A DNA stretch of 10,838 bases from a virus (UHGV-0114065); one strand, 5' to 3'. Counted from the stretch's first letter, positions 2 to 10,838 are shown. Notes: a model not told the origin generated them from the sequence alone. Program-made: numbers and translations.

Positions 2-607
2 AAAAGCGCAAAGTATGCCGCAGAAGCTCAGAAGTATGCCGCAGACCTGCAAAATAAGCAGTTCAACACCATCATGAACAACCTGAAGCCGTTTACTCCT
101 CTGGCTGATAAGTATCTCGGCAGCCTCGAGAACTTATCGTCTCTGGAAGGGCAAGGTCAGGCGCTTAACCAGTATTACAACTCTCAGCAGTATAAAGATC
201 TTGCTGGTCAGGCTCGCTATCAGAGTCTGGCGGCAGCGGAAGCAACAGGTGGATTGGGTTCCACCGCAACCAGTAATCAGTTAGCAACAATCGCACCAAC
301 GCTTGGTCAGCAATGGCTATCTGGACAAATGAACAATTACAACAACCTGGCAAATATCGGTCTTGGCGCTCTTCAGGGACAGGCAAACGCCGGGCAAACA
401 TATGCCAACAACATGAGTCAGATTTCACAGCAAAGCGCGGCGCTGGCGGCGGCAAACGCCAACCGACCGTCAGCATTGCAGCAGGGTGTTAGTGGTGCTG
501 CATCCGGTGCGCTTTTGGGTGGTGGCATAGCCAGTGCTCTCGAGCTATCAACTCCGTGGGGTGCTGGTATCGGTGCTGGTCTTGGTCTGCTTGGTTCACT
601 GTTTTAA
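2..607 (+). CDS. DNA-ejection (E) protein, P22 gp7-like; 5' end lies upstream of the window (frame open from nt 2, first in-window ATG at 74)
   Basis: Frame 2 has no stop from nt 2 to TAA at 605-607. Low-complexity Q/A/G/N-rich sequence typical of podovirus ejection proteins. Sits directly upstream of gp20/gp16-like genes in P22 gene order. An AAGGGG RBS for the next gene follows its stop. Confidence 0.75.
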   Translation, partial: KSAKYAAEAQKYAADLQNKQFNTIMNNLKPFTPLADKYLGSLENLSSLEGQGQALNQYYNSQQYKDLAGQARYQSLAAAEATGGLGSTATSNQLATIAPTLGQQWLSGQMNNYNNLANIGLGALQGQANAGQTYANNMSQISQQSAALAAANANRPSALQQGVSGAASGALLGGGIASALELSTPWGAGIGAGLGLLGSLF

Positions 608-617
608 GGGGTAATCA

Positions 618-1997
618 ATGGCTACGTGGCAACAGGGTATTAATTCTGGTGGGTTTCTTGCTGGCATCGGTGCGCAAAATGAGAATGCGCCAAAGGCAAG
701 CGACATTAATGCAACGCTTGGTCTGATCCGCGAAAACAATGAACTGGCTCGCTCAGGTGCAAATAACGTTGGCCTGACCGCGTTACGTGGTCTGGCTGGA
801 GTTGCTGATATTTACAATCAGGAACAGCAACAGAAAGCTATTAGTGCGTTCAATAAGGTTCACGCTGATGCATGGGCTTCTGGTGATCCATCTGGACTAT
901 TTAAGTTTGCCCAGGAAAATCCAGCGTTTGTTGCACAGGCACAACAGGCGTTTTCCGGTCTTAATGAGCAGCAACGCAACGATATGGGCGATTTAGCCAT
1001 GAGGGCTAACGTCGCTCTTTCCCAGGGACCGGAAGCCTACAGTAAATTCATTACTGACAACAAGGACAGGTTAAATCGCGTTGGTGCTAATGCTGACTGG
1101 ATGATTCAGACAGGTATCCAGAATCCAGAGCAGCTATCACACATGCTGACTACTATGTCTCTCGGTGCGCTTGGACCAGAAAAGGCGTTTGCTGTTCAGG
1201 ACAAGATGGCTGGTCGTGAAATTGACAGAGGCAGGCTGGCAGAGACAATCCGCAGCAATCAGGCTGGCGAGGCGCTAACAGCACGTGGTCAGAATATCAC
1301 GATGCGCGGTCAGGATTTATCGATGCAGAGAGCATCAATGAAAGGATCGGTTGGGAATAATGAGCGTACAGTTCAGTTAGCAGATGGCAGAACTGTAACG
1401 GTAGGCGGGAAGCTTCACGGCGCTGGGGCTAATGCGTTCTACGAAGGTATCGACAACGAGGGGAATATGGTTCGCGTCCCTGCTGGCTCTATTGCCGCTC
1501 CGGCTACATCGGCAGCAAGCGCGCAGAATTACGCAATGAAGAAAGATCTTGATGCAATTTCTGGTGCATCAATTGACGATCTTGGCTTCATGACTGGCAT
1601 TACAGGCTCTTCAGGTTCTCCTGCTCTTGGTGCAGATATTCGTAGCCGTGCATCTGGTGGTGATCAGAGGAAACTATACAACGCTGCACAGCGAATCCAA
1701 GGAAAGATGCAGAATCAGGGCATTGCAGCAGCCAGAGACATGGGGGCATCCGGTATCAACACCGTTGCAGAAGCAAAGATGTATTTTCAAGGTATGCCAC
1801 AGGTTGATTTCTCAAGCCCTGAAGCACTGCAACAATCAATGCGCGACATTCAGCAATATACCGACAATTACAACCAGCAATATAACGTTAATGTCGGTAA
1901 TGGAGGGAAGAAATCATCAATGCAACAGCCGCCTACTCAGCAATCAGCAGGAGGTAGCTACACGTCAAAATCAGGCATTCAATTTACGGTGGAATGA
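618..1997 (+). CDS. DNA-ejection (E) protein, P22 gp20-like
   Basis: 459-aa ORF with ATG at 618 preceded by AAGGGG RBS. Size and position between the gp7-like and gp16-like genes match the P22 7-20-16 block (from memory). Its stop overlaps the next start (ATGATGA at 1994-1999). Confidence 0.8.
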
Positions 1998-3835
1998 TGA
2001 AAGTAACTGCAAACGGTAAGACATTTACCTTCCCTGATGGTACGAGCACGGAAGATATTGGCACCGCCATTGATGAGTATTTTGCTGGTCAGGCTGTTCA
2101 GCAACAAACAGTTAATCAGGCCAATAATGAACCAGCACGTGAAGAACCATCATTGATGCAACAAGCTGGCGATTGGATCACTGGTGGTCAAAGTGCAGGG
2201 CAAATTGCAGAGCAGGCTGGTCGTGGTCTGGTAAACATACCATTTGACGTATTGCAGGGTGGCGCAAGTCTGATTAATGCAATCAGTCAGGGGCTTGGTG
2301 GGCCAAAAGTATTGGATGATGTTTATCGTCCAGTAGACAGACCGACAGACCCCTACGCACAAGCAGGTGAAACAATTGGTGGGTATTTAGTTCCAGGAGT
2401 TGGAACGGCAGGAAGCATGGCTATTGGATCACTGGCAGAGGCCGCAAATCAGAAAGGCGATTTCGCACAAAATGCAGCTAAAAATGCCGGAGTTAACCTT
2501 GCCGCTCAGGGTGTTCTTTCCGCAGCAGCAAAGGGAATAGGGCGTGGAATAACGGCTATAAAAGGTGATATTGCGCCAGAAGTGGCGAAGAAAATTGCCA
2601 CATCAGAATCGATGGGCGTGACACCAATGACATCTGATGTTATCCCGCCGAAAAATGCTTTCACTCGCGGCCTTACTCAGGATGCCGAGGGGGCTTTGCT
2701 CGGGACAGGCTCAAAGAGAGCGGAGCAATATGCAACGCGTAGTAAGCTGGTAAGCAATTATTTTGACCGTTTTGGTGAGTACAACCCTGATGATGTGGTG
2801 AAATCTCTGACCACCACGTTAAGGGGGCGGAAGGATGCCGCTGGCGCTGTTATCAATGACATCACCAATAAAATGGGTAATGCCGCAGTTGATACCACAA
2901 ATACCATGAATGCTCTGAATACAGCGATCGCAAGACAGGAACGACTTGGGACGTCTGCCAATCAAAGCCTGCTTACATCCTTGCGTAACCTACGTGAAGA
3001 ATTAGCAAACCCTGCAACTGATTTGGATGTTACGTTTGATCTCTTGCGTCAGCACAGAACGGCATTTAGATCTAATGTTCAGGGAGATGCTATGGTCTTC
3101 CCCAACCAGGCAAAAGCAGCTACCAATATGGTAGAGAATGCAATGTCAAAAGACCTTCGTAACGCAGTTGCAAAAAACCTCGGTGCATCAGACGCAGCAA
3201 AATACCTTAAAGCAAATTCTGATTATGCAAACGTTTATAATAAGGTGCTTAATAAAAACATTGCTAACAAACTCAACAAGGCAAGCAGTGAAGCCAGCCC
3301 TGAACTTATAAATACCGTTGTATTAAGCAGAAAACCATCTGACGTGAAACGAATATGGAGCGCACTGGATGATAAAGGGAAAGATGCTATGCGTGCAGCT
3401 TACGTCAGCAAAATAGCGGAAAAGGTCGGTGTCTCTCCAGCCAAGTTCATCACTGAAGTTAATAAGCTGAAATCTCAGTCAGGCGGTGAAATTTACAACA
3501 CTATTTTTTCTGGAAAGCACATGAAAGAGCTTGATGCTCTTCATGAAGTTCTACAGCAAACAGCAAGGTCAGACACCGCAAATGTAGTAACTCAGACGGG
3601 GCAATCACAAGCCAACAGGATAAGGACGATTGGCGCAACTGCGACTCTTGGCGTATCAATGGGGATTGAGGCTGGTTTTGGTGCAATGATGCGTTTGTAT
3701 GAGTCCAAAGCAGCAAGGAATGCGCTCTTACGTCTGGCAAACACTAAAGCTGGAACGCCAGCTTATGAAAGAGCGCTAAATCAGGCTGCTACTGCCGTGC
3801 GCCCGCTCTTAGCTAACGAAGCGACCCGGCAGTAG
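1994..3835 (+). CDS. DNA-ejection (E) protein, P22 gp16-like
   Basis: 613-aa ORF, translationally coupled to the upstream gene. Length is close to P22 gp16 (about 609 aa, from memory). It is the last gene of the late structural operon before the immI region. Confidence 0.8.
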
Positions 3836-3857: not shown

Positions 3858-4340
3858 TTATTTTATAGTTTTTATGAATTCTTTATTAAATCCCTTAGCT
3901 TCTCCGGGGTATCTTCCAAAGACAATTTTTATAAAAACAGAAAAAATAAAGATAGCAACGCTTAACAACAGTTGCAGTATCATTGGAACCCAAAGAACTA
4001 CAGGCTCTATATTCATGAAACCAAATATTCTTCCGGCGATCATGGCGAAGTACCACACTGTTATCAGCAAACTTAGTGGCATATGAATTACTGATATTAC
4101 CAATCCAAGAGCATCAGTAATTCTATTTTCAAATTTTTCAGGGGAAAACTTTTCTTTAAGGTAATTCAGTGCGCAGGTCTCATTCTCTGGATTTTCAGCA
4201 TTTTTCCCTATAGCAATAGAAATCTCAGATATCCTTGATTCAATTCTTTTGCGTTTAATAAAACTAGAAAAAAAGAACCACGCAATCTGCAACCCTATCC
4301 CCATAAATAGAGTTGCGGCAACTAGCACAGCGTAACTCAT
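3858..4340 (-). CDS. Small inner-membrane protein (about 160 aa, three predicted TM helices) at the position of P22 sieA; candidate superinfection-exclusion protein
   Basis: Minus-strand ORF. Start placed at the first ATG (complement of 4338-4340, [24 protein letters not shown]...) rather than the GTG at 4424 given by the ORF track. Three long hydrophobic stretches are visible by eye. The DNA is AT-rich. Gene order 16 > / < membrane gene / < unknown / < mnt mirrors P22 16-sieA-hkcC-mnt as recalled. Homology to SieA itself was not verified. Confidence 0.55.
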
Positions 4341-4569
4341 AGAATCAGACACACCAACCTCTTTAGTTTTTCTAGTTACTTTGTCACGATAGGATATGCG
4401 AATTGATAAAACTAAATTGCGCACATGATAACTCAGTAATAATTGTTAATGAAAACATGATCACCTATATTGCACAAGGCGAAACAGGAAGCATAATCTG
4501 GTTTCATGAGTGTGATCACGTTTGGGTAAATCAAAGTCAAGAGGAAATACTTGAAATTATCAAAAATAA

Positions 4570-5151
4570 CTATCTAAACGTTGCACACGACTCATCTATC
4601 CATTTTTCATAAAATTGTATACCGAGATAGGCAAGAACAGATGGATGTATATCAACAAGCTTTTCGCCAAGATGTTCTGTTGGAGGTGGATAATCTTTGC
4701 CTTGGTTTCTTACGGTTATAGGCATAGTTGTTGCTGGATGAAACTCAACTATCATAGGGTCGCCTTCGTATTTTGCTATTTTCCCTGTTGAATCAATGAT
4801 TAACTCTTTAATATAATGGCTTCTTGCTCCCGGAAATGCCCCAAGAGTAGTATAAGGAGGTTCAAGTTTTGAGATTTCCATAGTGGAATGATGATCAGCA
4901 TTTCTTGCTTGGTGAAGGTAAGCAAGTGTTTTGTCTGTTTTTCTAAGCATGAACTTTTGGTTGAAGTGGCTGCTAAATTTTCCACTAACCGGCTTTGTTG
5001 CACAGAGCAACTTACTGAAAGACTTTTCTATATGCCCAAGACATTCTCGCCAGTGCATTTCAAAATCATCATGGTTTGTAGATGATTTCATCTGCTCTAG
5101 GCACTTTTTAGCTGCGATGATTTCTTTTTTTGCTGGGTTGTAATCGATCAT
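4570..5151 (-). CDS. Hypothetical protein (193 aa), translationally coupled downstream of mnt; function unknown
   Basis: Minus-strand ORF whose ATG (complement of 5149-5151) overlaps the mnt stop codon (ATGA overlap at 5148-5151). No TM segments and no motif I can assign. AT-rich. Confidence 0.7.
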   Translation of the reverse strand: MIDYNPAKKEIIAAKKCLEQMKSSTNHDDFEMHWRECLGHIEKSFSKLLCATKPVSGKFSSHFNQKFMLRKTDKTLAYLHQARNADHHSTMEISKLEPPYTTLGAFPGARSHYIKELIIDSTGKIAKYEGDPMIVEFHPATTMPITVRNQGKDYPPPTEHLGEKLVDIHPSVLAYLGIQFYEKWIDESCATFR

Positions 5152-5402
5152 TTTGCATCCTTGCCATACATGTTTTTAAGTGTCTCAAATACCACAGACT
5201 TGAACTGTTCAGCCTGCATCTCGGCTAATCGTTCAGCTTCATTGCGATAACCTTTTACAGGAGATGGTCTCGATAGAGCATCTTGGACGATTTGCAACAA
5301 TTCTGAGTTCATTGATCTACCATTTGACTCTGCTCTGTATTTTAATTTTTCTCTTACTTCCAAAGGCATGCGGAAGTTAAAGTGCGGATCATCTCTAGCC
5401 AT
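5148..5402 (-). CDS. mnt: Mnt repressor (ribbon-helix-helix; maintenance of Pant repression in lysogens)
   Basis: 84-aa product MARDDPHFNFRMPLEVREKLKYRAESNGRSMNSELLQIVQDAL... closely matches the P22 Mnt N-terminal RHH domain as I recall it. It is divergent from arc across the operator region. GGAG lies 9 nt upstream of the ATG on the minus strand. Confidence 0.9.
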   Translation of the reverse strand: MARDDPHFNFRMPLEVREKLKYRAESNGRSMNSELLQIVQDALSRPSPVKGYRNEAERLAEMQAEQFKSVVFETLKNMYGKDAK

Positions 5403-5424
5403 GCCATCACTCCAAGTTAGTGTA

Positions 5425-5453
5425 TTGACATGATAGAAGCACTCTACTATATT
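5425..5453 (+). promoter_or_regulatory. Pant promoter (-35 TTGACA 5425-5430, 17-bp spacer, -10 TATATT 5448-5453)
   Basis: Consensus -35 and near-consensus -10 with the arc operator in the spacer, as in the P22 immI region. It drives arc-ant. Confidence 0.8.
5430..5450. promoter_or_regulatory. Arc operator (21 bp, ATGATAGAAGCACTCTACTAT)
   Basis: Exact match to the P22 Oarc sequence as recalled, with TAGA/TCTA half-sites. It lies between the -35 and -10 of both Pant and Pmnt. Confidence 0.8.
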
Positions 5454-5458
5454 CTCAA
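5430..5458 (-). promoter_or_regulatory. Pmnt promoter (minus strand: -35 TTGAGA at 5453-5458, 17-bp spacer, -10 TATCAT at 5430-5435)
   Basis: Divergent promoter overlapping Pant. The hexamers were read from the reverse complement. Arrangement is consistent with the known P22 Pant/Pmnt overlap. Confidence 0.6.
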
Positions 5459-5477
5459 TAGGTCCACCGTGGACCTA
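5459..5477. promoter_or_regulatory. Mnt operator (palindrome TAGGTCCACCGTGGACCTA)
   Basis: 19-bp near-perfect palindrome centred on one base, matching the P22 Omnt as recalled. It overlaps the predicted Pant transcription start. Confidence 0.8.
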
Positions 5478-5492
5478 TATTGTGAGGTGAAC

Positions 5493-5654
5493 ATGAAAGG
5501 AATGAGCAAAATGCCGCAGTTCAATTTGCGGTGGCCTAAAGAAGTATTGGATTTGGTACGCAAGGTGGCGGAAGAGAATGGTCGGTCTGTTAACTCTGAG
5601 ATTTATCAGAGAGTAATGGACAGCTTTAAGAAGGAAGGGCGTATTGGCGCGTAA
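5493..5654 (+). CDS. arc: Arc repressor (53 aa, ribbon-helix-helix)
   Basis: [53 protein letters not shown] differs from recalled P22 Arc at only two positions (R16K, E43D). GAGGTG RBS precedes the ATG at 5493. The longer ORF from 5430 in the track runs through the operators and is not the real start. Confidence 0.93.
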
Positions 5655-5722
5655 AGTTGAAGCCCCAACTGCGGGAACAGTCAGGGCTTCTGTTGTCAGT
5701 AAATTCGTGGAGAAAAACCAAC
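5654..5722 (-). ncRNA. sar: sar antisense RNA (about 69 nt) complementary to the arc-ant intercistronic region and ant RBS
   Basis: Extended -10 promoter on the minus strand (TGCTATACT, complement of 5729-5737) places a start near 5722, the complement of the ant ATG. The transcript would cover the ant RBS (5709-5717) and a 7-bp inverted repeat (5659-5665 / 5684-5690), ending near the arc stop. This matches the published P22 sar arrangement; the ends are inferred, not measured. Confidence 0.45.
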
Positions 5723-6625
5723 ATGAATAGTATAGCAATTTTAGAAGCAGTGAACACCTCTTACGTACCTTTCAATGGTCAGCAGATTATCACCGCCATG
5801 ACTGCCGGAGTTGCATATGTTGCGATGAAGCCAATCGTTGAAAACCTTGGAATGAGCTGGTCAACGCAGCAAACAAAACTCATGAAGCAGATTAGCAAAT
5901 TCAACTGTGTTCATATGAACATGGTTGCCGCTGATGGTAAGCTTCGTAAGCTACTCTGCCTTCCTTTGAAGAAGTTAAATGGATGGCTGTTCAGCATCAA
6001 CCCTGAGAAAGTTCGTGCTGACATCCGCGATAAACTGATTCAGTACCAGGAAGAATGCTTTACTGTGCTGCATGACTACTGGACGAAGGGAAAGGCAGAA
6101 AATGCACGTAAGAAAACATCTGTTGATGACAGGACTCCGCTTCGTGATGCTGTAAATATGCTAGTCAGCAAAAAGCATCTAATGTACCCAGAAGCTTATG
6201 CAATGATTCATCAGCGTTTCAACGTGGAAAGTATTGAAGAGCTTGATTCATCTCAGATACCGCAAGCAGTAGAGTACATCCACAGGGTAGTGCTTGAAGG
6301 CGAGTTCATCGGCAAACAAGAGAAGAAAACCAACGAGCTTTCTGCAAAAGAAGCAAACAGCCTTGTATGGCTATGGGATTATGCCAACCGCTCACAGGCA
6401 TTATTCCGCGAACTGTATCCGGCGCTGAAACAAATTCAATCGAACTATTCCGGCAGATGTCATGACTGCGGTTATGAGTTCTCCCGTATTATCGATATAG
6501 CGAGAGACGTTTTAATCAATCACACACGAGATGTTGATATTAATGAGCCAGACGGACCAACGAATCTTTCCGCATGGATGAGACTTAAGAATAAAGAATT
6601 ACCTCCTTCAGTACATAACTACTGA
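5723..6625 (+). CDS. ant: Antirepressor Ant (300 aa)
   Basis: Start placed at ATG 5723 ([21 protein letters not shown]...) with GGAGAAAAA RBS; the track ORF from 5657 is an upstream in-frame extension. Position after arc and length of 300 aa match P22 Ant. Confidence 0.88.
5729..5737 (-). promoter_or_regulatory. Psar extended -10 element (TGnTATACT on minus strand)
   Basis: Read from the reverse complement of 5729-5737, inside the first codons of ant. No good -35 is present, consistent with an extended -10 promoter. Confidence 0.45.
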
Positions 6626-6643
6626 CAGATAACCAACACGACA

Positions 6644-6667
6644 ACCCAGCTTCGGCTGGGTTTTTTT
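6644..6667 (+). terminator. Rho-independent terminator after ant (stem ACCCAGC / GCTGGGT, loop TTCG, then T7)
   Basis: Perfect 7-bp GC-rich stem with a TTCG tetraloop, immediately followed by TTTTTTT. Located 19 bp after the ant stop. Confidence 0.85.
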
Positions 6668-6725: not shown

Positions 6726-8495
6726 ATGACAGACATTACAGCCAATGTGATCGTATCGATGCCTTCGCAACTCTTCACTATGGCGCGTTCTTTTAAAGCT
6801 GTTGCCAATGGCAAAATTTATATCGGAAAAATTGACACTGACCCGGTAAATCCTGAAAACCAGATTCAGGTTTATGTAGAGAACGAAGACGGCTCTCACG
6901 TTCCTGTTTCGCAACCAATCATCATTAACGCTGCTGGTTACCCGGTATATAACGGACAGATTGCCAAGTTCGTAACTGTGCAAGGCCATTCTATGGCTGT
7001 TTATGATGCGTACGGTGCGCAGCAGTTTTATTATCCGAACGTACTAAAATACGACCCGGATCAGTACAGTAAAATGGTCGGAGGCCTTACAACACCAGTA
7101 ACATGGCCTGGGTTTGCCGGAGGAGCAGATCCGACCGGAGTTAATTCATCTACAGCGGCTTTTCAAGCGTCATTGGATCAGATCGGCTACATTAACATGC
7201 CGCCAGGGGAGTACTTAATTGATGAAAGCTTAAACCTTGCAAAATCAGCTGTAATCTTTGGTGCTGGGAGATCGCTATCGAAGTTAAAATTCTCCGGGAA
7301 TTCTGCAACGCCTTTCGTTAAGGCTGCATTAGGGTACGCATCAACCGATTTAGTATATTTGCGTGATTTCACAGCCATTGCCACAGTTCCAAACTGCGGC
7401 CCTCTGGTTTCAATAAAAACAGATGCCGCCGCGCAATCTGCATCTCAGGTCGTTGTTGGTGATTTAGACAAACTAGTCATTAACAATGTTGATGCTTATG
7501 GTGATTCAAGCGGGAACTACTGGAATTGTGGCTTTGAAGCCATCGACTGCGGTGGTGTCCATATTCATAATTTCACAGTTAATAACAGGACTGTTTCGGC
7601 GCAAACTGACACATCGACATCTGGATTCAGGTTCAGAACTACGGCGCAAAAAGTAAGTGTAATACGCGCCCTGACAGCACAGGATTTCTACCTACTGAGA
7701 ATGTATTACGGCATCGACACGAAGCCGTTTAATAATCTCGGGGGCGGGATTACCAGTTATTATCTTTCCGACTTCGAAATCGTTGGCGTCAGGAATGGAA
7801 TAAGGGCTCAGAACTGGTGTGCGGCATGGCGAGTTACTGGGCATATCGATTCTACTGAGCAATGCCTAAACTTCCAGGGGGCGGGATTAACAAACGCACG
7901 GTTCACTGGCTGCGATTTCAGAAAAGGGAATAACGGCGGGCTAGGTTATGTTGCAGGACCAATGGTTACCCTGGACTACGGTGAGCAAATAACTTTCACG
8001 GGCGCGACGTTCTCCGGAATAAACCTCAATCTTGCTGACCCAAGCAATACTGCTTTTAGTTTTACCAATGCTTACAACGGCAACTGGGCATTTCTGATCA
8101 GTATTGACGGAAATACTTTTACTAAGTTTCACAACGTCATTGGGCAGACTAATAGCACCAATATTATTAGTATCGGCATTAATTCTTACAACCAGATTGC
8201 CGATGCAATAACCTTCGATTCAAATCTTGATCCAAGCTTTAGGCTTCAGACACCAATTCCAAGCATCAGCAAAGTTGTTGCCTTGCCAGTGGGAGATAGT
8301 ACATTTACCGTAAATGTTACCGCTAACCGTTTCAAAAATGCGCCTAACTATGCTGATGCTCGCCCGGTGAATAACCCAACTCAGAATGTCAGGGTTGTTT
8401 ATGATTATGCCGGATCTACAGCGAGCGCACTGCTTTTTAGGGTTTATGGAGTGGTGACCGCTGGGAACTTCCGATTTGGCATAATTACGGCATAA
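6726..8495 (+). CDS. Tailspike protein: P22 gp9-type N-terminal head-binding domain (about aa 1-115) fused to a divergent receptor-binding/enzymatic domain
   Basis: N-terminus [34 protein letters not shown]...VTVQGHSM...[11 protein letters not shown] matches the P22 tailspike head-binding domain from memory. Downstream of about nt 7070 the sequence is unrelated to the P22 endorhamnosidase domain. GGAG RBS at 6713-6716. Confidence 0.85.
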
Positions 8496-8513: not shown

Positions 8514-8807
8514 ATGCGAGATATTTCACCACTGCTTCATGCTGTCACCGCTTTAGCTGTTCAGGCTGCTTTTGGCCTTTCCTCACGCGATTGGATAACT
8601 GGGGGTCTGCTGGGGAGTCTTTGGTTTATCGCTCGCGAGCACACCCAGGCTGAGTATCGCTGGATTGCCCAGTTCGGCGCAGGGAAGCGCGCCAACATGC
8701 CGTGGTGGGGCGGGTTCTCCTGGCGCGCATGGAACCTTCCCAGCATGCTCGACTGGATTGTGCCGGTGGCGACCTGCGCTGCCGTTTATTTTGCCTCCAC
8801 CCTTTAA
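8514..8807 (+). CDS. Hypothetical small membrane protein (97 aa), G+C-rich cargo gene immediately downstream of the tailspike
   Basis: ATG at 8514 with AGGAG RBS 6 nt upstream. Two or three hydrophobic/Trp-rich segments by eye. Composition is visibly more G+C-rich than flanking phage genes. It sits where P22-like phages carry O-antigen conversion genes (gtr or oac). Confidence 0.6.
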   Translation: MRDISPLLHAVTALAVQAAFGLSSRDWITGGLLGSLWFIAREHTQAEYRWIAQFGAGKRANMPWWGGFSWRAWNLPSMLDWIVPVATCAAVYFASTL

Positions 8808-8863
8808 CTCCTGTCGAGCTCATTGATAGGCGCCGACACATTGATCTGCACCTCCTTTAAAAC

Positions 8864-8883
8864 TACTGTATATAAAAACAGTA
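8864..8883. promoter_or_regulatory. LexA (SOS) box TACTGTATATAAAAACAGTA
   Basis: CTGT-N8-ACAG with 18 of 20 positions matching the E. coli consensus TACTGTATATATATACAGTA. It ends 1 nt before the AAGGAG RBS (8885-8890) of the downstream gene. Confidence 0.7.
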
Positions 8884-8898
8884 AAAGGAGTGCAGGTC

Positions 8899-9138
8899 AT
8901 GCCACGCCGTTCCGACATTCACGCCGCATTTGTGGCCGCAATACAGCTAAACCCCAAGGGCTACCGGTGCTTACGCACAGAAGACTTTATCCGCGAACTG
9001 GCAAAGGTCCACTGGCATTTCAGCCGGGCCGACGCCAACGAGTGGATAGAGCGCTATCAGCCCGACTTCACCGACAAGACAACTGACGGAACCGACAATC
9101 ACTACTGGATCCTGCGCAATATGGGGAGGGTTCACTGA
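8899..9138 (+). CDS. Hypothetical small protein (79 aa), first gene of the SOS-box-controlled cassette
   Basis: ATG at 8899 with AAGGAG 8 nt upstream; the ORF track starts it at a GTG at 8890 inside the RBS. Its stop overlaps the next gene's start (TGATG at 9136-9140). No recognisable family. Confidence 0.6.
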   Translation: MPRRSDIHAAFVAAIQLNPKGYRCLRTEDFIRELAKVHWHFSRADANEWIERYQPDFTDKTTDGTDNHYWILRNMGRVH

Positions 9139-9455
9139 TGGGCTTTCCTTCACCGGCGGGCGACTACGTAGAGCAGCGGTTAACACCGGAGCGTATCTGC
9201 GGGATCGGCATGGACAGCCGCATCCTCGAAACATCATCCGGCTTTGCCGTTATCGAACCGTGCACCAGGCTGGTACAGAATCAGGTTCTGCTGATTTTAT
9301 CTGGCGGCAGAACGCAGTTTGCCAGGGTAATGGGTAGGGCATTAATCACTGATGATGGTGAAGCGATCGAAGGGGAGGAGGCGGAGGAAGTTGAGGTGCT
9401 GGGGCGCGTGACGTTCTTCATCAACAGCGCGCTACAGGATGACAGGGTGGTTTGA
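9138..9455 (+). CDS. UmuD'-like protein (degenerate S24/LexA-type peptidase fold, starts at the position of the UmuD cleavage site; catalytic Ser/Lys not evident)
   Basis: N-terminus MGFPSPAGDYVEQRL matches UmuD residues 25-38 (GFPSPAADYVEQRI), the first residues of processed UmuD'. The C-terminal pattern EVEVLGRVTFFINSA resembles the last beta-strands of UmuD/LexA. GGGGAGGG RBS 7 nt upstream. I could not find the conserved Ser-Met and Thr-Val-Lys motifs. Confidence 0.65.
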   Translation: MGFPSPAGDYVEQRLTPERICGIGMDSRILETSSGFAVIEPCTRLVQNQVLLILSGGRTQFARVMGRALITDDGEAIEGEEAEEVEVLGRVTFFINSALQDDRVV

Positions 9456-9465
9456 TTGGGTGGCA

Positions 9466-10623
9466 TTACGCCACCTTTTCATCAAGCCAGTCCGCCCACC
9501 ACTGCATCATTTCTCTGCGCTTATCGAGATACTGAGCATGGTTGTAAATCCCGCGCACAGATCCGCCGTTGGCATGTGCCAGTTGCACTTCAATAGCGTC
9601 GGCAGGCCATTCGTGCTCGTTCATAATCGTGCTGAATTCATGCCTGAATCCGTGACCGCTTTCCAGACCTTCATAGCCGATTTGTTTGATCACAAGCAAT
9701 ACCGCGTTCTCGCAGATTGGCTTTTTCTTATCATTGCGCCCGGCAAAAACAAACTCTGATACTGGTTTGGTGATTGAGCTTAGCGTAGTGAGAAGTTCAA
9801 CCACCTGGTCCGACATCGGGACCACATGAATTTTGCGTCCCTTCATCACACTGGCGTCGATGGTGATAATCCTGTTTTCAAAATCGACGTTCTTCCATTG
9901 CATGGAACGAAGCTCTTTCGTTCTTAGGGCTGTGTAGCGTAAAACTTTGGTCGCAATGAGCGATACGATACTTCCTGAAAATGTTGCCAGTGCTTTGTTG
10001 AATGCCGGGATCTGGTCTGCAGGAAGAAACGGGAAGTTCTTCTTGCGGTATCCCTTCATGGCGTCAGCAAGGTCAGGTGCCGGGTTATATTTAGCCCTAC
10101 CAGTGACAATAGCGTAACGGAAAACCTCGCCGCATCTTCTGCGGGCTTTGTTGGCTCGCTCCATTGCACCGCGATCTTCAAATCTGCGGATTACTTCCAG
10201 CAGTTGCATCGGCTCAATATCCTGAATTTCAAGGCCGCCGATGATAGGTAAAATGTCGTCATCAAACATTTTTGCAAGTTCAGTTGCATAGCCTACTGAC
10301 CAGACTTGCTTCTTGTGCTCGTACCATTCCTTGTAAATGGCGCTAAAGGAATTGTTGTTAGACGAAGCCTTTTTCGCCTTTACCGGATCGATGCCAACCG
10401 AGATGTCTTTCCTCGCAGTCCATGCTTTATCCCTTGCCTCTTGCAAAGTCATAAGCGGGTATTTTCCGACGGTCAGGATTTTCTCCTTACCGTCAATCTT
10501 GTAGCGAAGCTGCCATACCTTTTTCCCTGACACAGGGACATAAAGGTACAGGCCATTACCATCGAGAAGGCGGTATGGTTTTTCTTTCGGCTTTGCTGCT
10601 TCAATCTGCTTAACGGTGAGCAT
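9466..10623 (-). CDS. int: Tyrosine integrase, P4/IntS family (385 aa from ATG at 10623; alternative GTG start at 10659)
   Basis: N-terminus MLTVKQIEAAKPKEKPYRLLDGNGLYLYV is typical of P4-family integrases. Catalytic residues are visible (R in LRTKELR, HGFRH, Y in GIYNHAQY). It reads away from the adjacent tRNA 3' end, as expected for tRNA-targeting P4-type integrases. Confidence 0.9.
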   Translation of the reverse strand: MLTVKQIEAAKPKEKPYRLLDGNGLYLYVPVSGKKVWQLRYKIDGKEKILTVGKYPLMTLQEARDKAWTARKDISVGIDPVKAKKASSNNNSFSAIYKEWYEHKKQVWSVGYATELAKMFDDDILPIIGGLEIQDIEPMQLLEVIRRFEDRGAMERANKARRRCGEVFRYAIVTGRAKYNPAPDLADAMKGYRKKNFPFLPADQIPAFNKALATFSGSIVSLIATKVLRYTALRTKELRSMQWKNVDFENRIITIDASVMKGRKIHVVPMSDQVVELLTTLSSITKPVSEFVFAGRNDKKKPICENAVLLVIKQIGYEGLESGHGFRHEFSTIMNEHEWPADAIEVQLAHANGGSVRGIYNHAQYLDKRREMMQWWADWLDEKVA

Positions 10624-10668
10624 GGGTAAAAATCCGGTGGGTAAAATTATTTTATCCACTTTTTACCC
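10624..10668. repeat. Three copies of a 9-bp motif GGGTAAAA(A/T) in the integrase leader (10624-10632, 10639-10647, and inverted at 10660-10668)
   Basis: Read directly from the sequence. Two direct copies and one inverted copy lie within 45 bp immediately 5' of the int ATG. Candidate integrase arm-type or regulator sites. Confidence 0.4.
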
Positions 10669-10785
10669 GTCATGGAGTGCGGCTGTCAACGATCTGACGC
10701 GAACCATTACGAACTGTGAATCTACGGAAGTCTTGGTATTCAGGGGATTTTGCGGACTGGTACGGATGGGAGCGAACTGATAAAT

Positions 10786-10838
10786 GGTGTCCCCTGCAGG
10801 AATCGAACCTGCAATTAGCCCTTAGGAGGGGCTCGTTA
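10786..10838 (-). tRNA. argW: tRNA-Arg (anticodon CCU), 3' portion only; 5' part lies beyond the window end. Probable prophage attL core
   Basis: Reverse complement of 10786-10838 reads TAACGAGCCCCTCCTAAGGGCTAATTGCAGGTTCGATTCCTGCAGGGGACACCA. This gives an anticodon arm AGCCC-CUCCUAA-GGGCU (anticodon CCU), a T-arm with GGTTCGATTCC, and a 3' CCA. It matches enterobacterial argW from memory. Confidence 0.9.

Follow-up and report, generated by a model that had tools for sequence, protein, structure and literature searches.

A probable attL end of a P22-like Escherichia coli prophage at argW, with a terminator-like hairpin between intS and a converging cassette

The 10,838-nucleotide stretch of viral DNA analysed here (UHGV-0114065, hereafter the window) is very probably the attL end of a P22-like E. 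coli prophage of a known type, in which an IntS integration module sits at argW and a converging cassette is separated from intS by a hairpin. The evidence for this reading comes from the identities of the genes, their synteny, the att core and the identity of the intS promoter, together with the presence, the recurrence and the orientation bias of the hairpin. As a discovery it is minor, being a case of textbook lambdoid/P22-like mosaicism. Its value is for annotation, as the positions of attL, of its core and of PintS are now fixed, like the boundaries of the cargo slot (Table 1), and an earlier statement that no terminator lies between the cassette and int is corrected. Only the LexA-box cassette and the hairpin that adjoins it over the int stop codon might repay experiments.

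Table 1 Features of the window, with positions counted from its first nucleotide
Feature	Position	Strand	Remarks
gp7 (partial)	74-607	+	85% aa identity to P22
gp20	618-1997	+	83% aa identity to P22
gp16	1994-3835	+	76% aa identity to P22
sieA	3858-4424	-	91% aa identity to P22; phrog_7745
orf193	4570-5151	-	without named homologue
P22-type immI region	5148-6662		from mnt to the ant terminator
mnt	5148-5402	-	79% identity to P22; Pfam Repressor_Mnt
Pant/Pmnt promoter pair	5425-5458	both	overlapping, face-to-face
arc	5493-5654	+	96% identity to P22; Pfam Arc
ant	5723-6625	+	85% identity to P22; Pfam P22_AR_N/C
ant terminator	6643-6662	+	
tailspike	6726-8495	+	Pfam Head_binding, E = 1e-66
orf97	8514-8807	+	between tailspike and cassette
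converging cargo cassette (moron)	8818-9457	+	~640 bp; limits are homology breaks
LexA box TACTGTATATAAAAACAGTA	8864-8883		full consensus match, CTGT-N8-ACAG form
orf79	8899-9138	+	phrog_3893
orf105	9138-9455	+	phrog_3469 'UmuD-like'
terminator-like hairpin	about 9458-9483	+	stem, loop and short U-tract; straddles the int stop codon
intS	9466-10623	-	P4-type tyrosine integrase, 385 aa; ATG start; stop codon 9466-9468
PintS promoter	10660-10689	-	inside attL; -35 TTGACA 10689-10684; -10 TAAAAA 10665-10660
attL core TGGTGTCCCCTGCAG	10785-10799		15 bp, the last 15 nt of argW
tRNA-Arg(CCU) argW	10785-10838	-	3′ 54 nt; window ends inside the gene

The left part of the window is a P22-like (Lederbergvirus) late and immI arm, as judged from the series gp7-gp20-gp16, from sieA and mnt-arc-ant, and from a tailspike with a Head_binding domain. 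Residues 1-115 of the tailspike are 77% identical to P22 gp9, and the remainder, the receptor-binding part, is unrelated to it. Searches with Pfam and PADLOC gave no match for orf193, orf97, orf79 or orf105. A metagenome scaffold (L008) that ends at the same base matches the window at 99.99% identity, and a 48-kb contig from run SRR19776929 (L005) is equally close at 99.99%.

At its right end the window runs into argW. ARAGORN found no tRNA in the window because the gene is cut by the window's end; Rfam, however, recognized the fragment as a tRNA truncated at its 5′ end, which scored 31.7 bits where the gathering score is 29. In the 48-kb contig L005 the tRNA-Arg is complete, with 75 nt and the anticodon CCT, and is followed by yfdC, mlaA and fadL, which identifies the argW locus. 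Annotated complete E. coli genomes show this neighbourhood as well, and in 5425 of 5426 E. coli genomes argW matches the fragment at 100% identity. From the int ATG to the tRNA's 3′ end there are 161 nt and no intervening host gene, and since both genes lie on the minus strand, the 5′ end of int faces the tRNA's 3′ end, as the initial annotation had proposed. Neither of the two findings named as refuting that annotation, a tRNA fragment from outside argW or host genes between it and int, therefore applies.

Comparison with attP, with attR and with an argW free of integrase confirmed the position of the core. When aligned with the attP of HK620 and Sf6, the window matches from int through TGGTGTCCCCTGCAG, with the identity ending after 10799; past this position the window runs on into argW and the two phages into the xis-side arm. 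The Combat2C1 prophage, which has the same layout, contains the 15-mer once at each end as an attL/attR direct repeat, with flanks that diverge at once. In the integrase-free argW of strain TUM14697, the core and seven further bases are common with the phage arm. The core was set from these three comparisons at the 15 bp of Table 1 and may, depending on the host flank, extend to 10783. The window contains a single copy of the 15-mer, against 0.01 expected by chance. For KplE1 the published core is 16 nt (PMC2951348), and for Kapi1 it is 17 bp, 'identical to Sf6, HK620 and KplE1 except for the 5′ A' (PMC8787464). An IntS orthologue is present together with the core CTGCAGGGGACACCA(T) at argW, as in the IntS-TorI module of KplE1, HK620, Sf6 and CUS-3.

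The integrase contains the Pfam domains Arm-DNA-bind_3 (2e-25), Phage_int_M (6e-28) and Phage_integrase (2e-39). The same three domains make up P4 Int, to which IntS is 35% identical along its entire length (E = 4e-78). Catalytic residues R234, H324, R327, H350 and Y360 of IntS are all present and aligned with those of P4 Int. This architecture, the similarity to P4 Int, the catalytic residues and the placement of the core assign IntS to the P4-type (Arm-DNA-bind_3/DUF4102) integrases, in agreement with the family first proposed from the sequence. The list of open reading frames gives an alternative GTG start for intS at 10659. The protein is 100% identical to Int of phage CurroJimenez_Bas106 and 99% identical to HK620 Int, and it matches the K-12-type IntS of KplE1/CPS-53 at 383 of 384 residues. 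At the DNA level, int is 96.5-97.8% identical to the int genes of HK620, Sf6 and CUS-3 (96.5-97.1% for HK620 and Sf6), which bears out its description as an Sf6/HK620-like integrase. A comparison with P22 Int returned no significant similarity (E = 0.039), and P22 has its attP downstream of int and, like its close Salmonella relatives, integrates at thrW (PMC2629481), so that P22 differs in both integrase and site, as had been stated. The spacing reported earlier was also right, with 10 bp between the stops of int and the converging orf105 and 970 bp between those of int and the tailspike (8495). A 106-aa antisense reading frame inside int (9439-9759, plus strand) was regarded as spurious, since its start sits in non-conserved cassette sequence.

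Integration and excision would be carried out by the module of KplE1, HK620, Sf6 and CUS-3, with a P4-type IntS expressed from its own promoter. In KplE1, the intS promoter (-35 TTGACA, -10 TAaAAa) was mapped experimentally by Panis et al.; it shares sequence with the attL arm sites, and both IntS and the excisionase TorI repress it (PMC2951348). The same authors list HK620, Sf6, CUS-3 and the UTI89 and APEC-O1 prophages as carriers of the module, report Int autoregulation for KplE1 IntS and P4 Int alike, and describe KplE1 excision as very sensitive to IntS dosage (PMC2951348). The window is 100% identical from the -35 box to the ATG to both the K-12-type KplE1 attL and the HK620 attP, and at the position of PintS the HK620 record has an annotated 'prophage excision' promoter, together with arm repeats of attP. 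From this identity we infer the same regulation for the present prophage, in which PintS would overlap the attL arm sites and would be repressed by IntS itself and by TorI. As PintS is located in the interval from the att core to the start codon of int, the promoter stays beside int in the prophage. The gene for TorI would be located at the opposite prophage end, where it is found in the relatives Combat2C1 and EC31, and by analogy with these two the present prophage is presumably complete, attR and torI included.

The stretch between tailspike and int corresponds to the usual cargo slot of these phages, in which Sf6 has oac, CUS-3 has neuO, and KplE1 and others have gtr genes; in the window the slot contains a small open reading frame and the ~640-bp LexA-box cassette that converges on int. 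The box, for which 0.00 occurrences are expected by chance, overlaps a predicted promoter, the arrangement of a LexA-regulated promoter at the sequence level. The cassette would accordingly be read as a candidate for LexA control, and the perfect agreement of the box with the consensus makes SOS induction of the cassette plausible. Of orf105, only the first 21 residues match an NCBIfam model, that of HumD. The cassette is carried by 24 of 5426 E. coli genomes, and a megablast of the cassette against the phage collection returned nothing left of 9459. In E. coli EC31 the same cassette lies 9 bp from intS. It also occurs in another prophage at the ompW-yciB site, where the homology stops two bases past the stop codon and no terminator accompanies the cassette. 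Some transcription may read through into int in antisense. Tailspike and int also converge in HK620 and Sf6, and antiterminated late transcription meets int in every such phage, so antisense exposure of the integrase gene would not be peculiar to the present prophage.

A terminator-like element is present at the junction between the cassette and int, where the initial annotation had noted the absence of any terminator. It is a GC-rich hairpin in which the stem arms GGGUGGC (9458-9464) and GCCACCU (9470-9476) enclose the loop AUUAC (9465-9469) and are followed by the tail UUUCAUC. The int stop codon falls within the loop, and the right arm is made up of the last Int codons. The fold has a predicted energy of -12.2 kcal/mol (z = -4.9), and none of 200 shuffled sequences was as stable. 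With a 6-bp stem, the tail is UUUUCAUC, with five U in eight positions (including a U4 run), and the extra G.U pair leaves four U; because this extension of the stem uses up one T of the tail, the hairpin is a borderline and not a textbook terminator. Stem-loop and U4 run together cover 9458-9479. A consensus terminator scan of the window did not list the hairpin.

We put the likelihood that the hairpin acts as a terminator at roughly even or a little better. A different possibility, which we consider unlikely but deserving of attention, is that the structure is a passenger of the int 3′ flank, its right arm held in place by coding and its left arm passed on by descent, or that it acts on the int mRNA as a 3′ stabiliser or an RNase III site like lambda sib. 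Such a role would suit the observations that the minus strand folds too (-17.4 kcal/mol, z = -3.8) and that a longer inverted repeat (9448-9456/9481-9489) allows a 46-nt structure of -22.3 kcal/mol in which the U-tract is buried. On the minus strand, however, the stem is followed by CAAUCAAACC, which contains no U-tract; if the hairpin terminates, it therefore stops transcription arriving from the cargo side.

The conservation of the hairpin also bears on this question and was surveyed at 80 IntS loci from IMG/VR and other loci, giving 91 loci in which 58 of the int 3′ flanks are distinct. Of these 58 flanks, 29 (48 of the 91 loci) have a perfect stem of 6 bp or more at this position, compared to 2.3% of shuffled flanks. 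The other half of the flanks, including those of Sf6 and CUS-3, have no perfect stem, as might be expected of a passenger or an mRNA element. Against such a role, the left arm remains complementary in unrelated contexts and co-varies with the C-terminus of Int. Two C-terminal variants occur, ...KVE with the right arm TCCACC and ...KVA with the right arm GCCACC, and the left arms change in pair with them, GGTGGA accompanying TCCACC and GGTGGC accompanying GCCACC, in a comparison that is uncorrected for ancestry and in which the right arm is constrained by coding. The left arm of the KVA variant is kept across several unrelated upstream contexts. Retention of the stem, moreover, follows the orientation of the neighbouring gene. 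In a set of 69 distinct contexts, 29 of the 42 with a nearest open reading frame that converges on int retain the stem, compared to 5 of the 21 in which this frame is codirectional (odds ratio 7.1, p = 0.0011, uncorrected for ancestry and with crude calling of reading frames). Sf6, in which oac is codirectional with int, has no stem at the stop codon.

In the mechanism that we favour, the hairpin would most likely terminate or attenuate transcription coming from the cargo and late genes before it enters int in the antisense direction. A bolder proposal is that the hairpin is a dedicated insulator that closes the cargo slot of phages with IntS, and that partial SOS-induced read-through from the adjoining cassette lowers IntS by antisense transcription; this we regard as very improbable. 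If it were true, the efficiency of excision would be tied to DNA damage along a path that bypasses the phage repressor, a coupling that would follow from the sensitivity of KplE1 excision to IntS dosage (PMC2951348).

The combination of a P22-type immI region with an Sf6/HK620-style integration module, to which the initial annotation had drawn attention, is real, but it is neither special nor new, as it is found in CUS-3 and in many genomes. It is improbable that the window represents an unusual, recent hybrid of this kind, with no terminator and with SOS-driven antisense transcription affecting integrase expression. The perfect LexA consensus match and the 10 bp between the cassette and int stops would agree with such an account, as would the short U-tract after the hairpin and the failure of the scan to call a terminator; the combination is, in addition, absent from Sf6, where the ant region is missing, and from HK620, where it is degraded (PMC2629481). 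CUS-3 nevertheless provides a precedent, with the annotated order mnt, ant, tailspike, cargo gene neuO, int and attL core, and in the work of Villafane et al. on 'ant morons' P22, CUS-3 and the UTI89 and APEC-O1 prophages form one group (PMC2629481). The arrangement is also common in complete E. coli genomes. Among the best 25 matches to the window, intS is present in all 25 and at least 14 list an antirepressor in the same joined match, and the intS-attL-argW junction occurs in 1895 of 5426 complete E. coli genomes. The IntS-argW module is common to P22-like podoviruses, Stx-converting phages and the KplE1 remnant of K-12. A stable hairpin with a U4 run at the junction, of a type enriched where the neighbour converges, speaks against the absence of a terminator, and late transcription that converges on int is generic, as in HK620 and Sf6. 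Given the CUS-3 precedent, the grouping in the literature and the frequency in complete genomes, the hybrid layout is ordinary modular mosaicism that has already been described.

A reading as two elements, with intS in a KplE1-like remnant beside a second, P22-like prophage that has another integrase, could point to the defective 10-kb KplE1 remnant of K-12 with its near-identical intS at the same site, but it is hardly credible and was rejected, since int is contiguous with the tailspike in the free-phage genomes of HK620, Sf6, CUS-3, N7 and CurroJimenez_Bas106, and since Combat2C1 and EC31 each contain a single ~40-kb P22-like prophage that extends from torI/attR to intS/attL at argW, with no second integrase.

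Taken as a single P22-like prophage with an IntS module at argW, the window can be set beside several known systems. CUS-3 (CP000711; King et al. 2007, J Bacteriol 189:6447) shares with it, in the same order, mnt/ant, the tailspike, the cargo slot, int on the minus strand (97.8% identical DNA) and attL at argW. CUS-3 differs in its endosialidase tailspike, in carrying neuO as cargo instead of the LexA-box cassette, in having two mnt-like genes and no annotated arc, and in its imperfect stop-codon hairpin. KplE1 (CPS-53) of K-12 (Panis et al. 2007, 2010) has the same argW target, core and PintS/attL arm and the IntS that is identical at 383 of 384 residues, whereas it is a defective 10-kb remnant without structural or immunity genes, and the gene downstream of its intS, yfdG (gtrA), is codirectional with int. 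HK620 and Sf6 (Lederbergvirus) are alike in the attP core and arm region and in the order of tailspike and then int, but unlike in ant/immI, which Sf6 lacks and HK620 has in degraded form (PMC2629481); Sf6 differs further in its codirectional oac cargo and the lack of a stop-codon hairpin.

P22 resembles the window in its ejection proteins and sieA, in mnt-arc-ant and the promoters that overlap there, and in the head-binding domain of the tailspike (76-96% aa identity), and differs in its unrelated Int, in an attP downstream of int and in its gtrABC cargo. P4, HK620, Sf6 and the window all have the att core upstream of the 5′ end of int, in contrast to the downstream core of P22. In P4 this distance is ~150 nt, with arm repeats between core and int as in the window, while its Int is longer at 439 aa, its excision factor is Vis and its target is leuX.

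The cargo stretch between the tailspike and the P4-type integrase gene (int) holds a self-contained cassette with a LexA box and two genes, orf79 (phrog_3893) and orf105 (phrog_3469), which share one base where the first ends and the second begins (TGATG). The orf105 family is described as 'UmuD-like', and the first 20 residues of the protein, GFPSPAGDYVEQR..., match UmuD' starting exactly from its post-cleavage Gly25; beyond these residues, no match to the S24 peptidase was detectable in orf105. The LexA box itself lies inside a larger palindrome, which contains both the predicted LexA-controlled promoter and, in its right arm, the ribosome-binding site of orf79. Folding of 8790-8900 gave -36.9 kcal/mol (z = -6.5). 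In transcripts arriving from upstream, this fold would hide the orf79 ribosome-binding site; in transcripts initiated at the predicted promoter within the palindrome, the site would be left exposed.

Features of the cargo and immI regions and of the cassette-int junction
Feature	Coordinates	Description
orf193	4570-5151	phrog_23516; between sieA and mnt
orf97	8514-8807	phrog_1443; 18 bp after the tailspike
LexA-box cassette	8818-9457	self-contained
Larger palindrome	8841-8900	CTGCACCTCCTTT...AAAGGAGTGCAG; encloses the LexA box
Outer inverted repeat	9448-9456 with 9481-9489	second repeat; encloses the inner hairpin

At the junction where the cassette converges on int, the terminator-like inner hairpin that straddles the int stop codon is enclosed by an outer repeat in which the last codons of orf105 pair with the last codons of int. 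The combined 46-nt structure folds at -22.3 kcal/mol (z = -5.1), and at a related cassette-int junction, L032, there is a comparable long stem (-25.1 kcal/mol) whose register differs. Lambdoid phages without this integrase, among them 434, lambda hybrids, mEp332, and ev099, also contain the hairpin and the last ~85 nt of int (9459-9549) as a stand-alone fragment with 93-98% identity, which their records label hypothetical or transposase. This fragment may mark the boundary of a module or be the scar of a recombination event.

Among 5426 E. coli genomes, 24 carry the cassette; in about half of these carriers it adjoins intS, the same integrase gene, and in others it lies at the ompW-yciB prophage site. 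Homologues of orf105 were present in 56 phage records, mostly from Klebsiella and Enterobacter. The cargo stretch also carries orf97, which has a terminator-like hairpin within its 3′ end (8764-8784) and is missing from most relatives, the same slot being filled there by gtr, acyltransferase, or other cargo.

The tailspike (6726-8495) is a mosaic that joins the P22 head-binding domain (residues 1-115) to a ~470-aa part unrelated to that of P22, with a weak pectate-lyase-like match and covered by no phage record at the megablast level. A second cargo gene, orf193, is sited in the immI region, had no match in Pfam, NCBIfam, or PADLOC, and is also carried by the same-layout prophage of E. coli Combat2C1; in P22, its place is held by orf59a.
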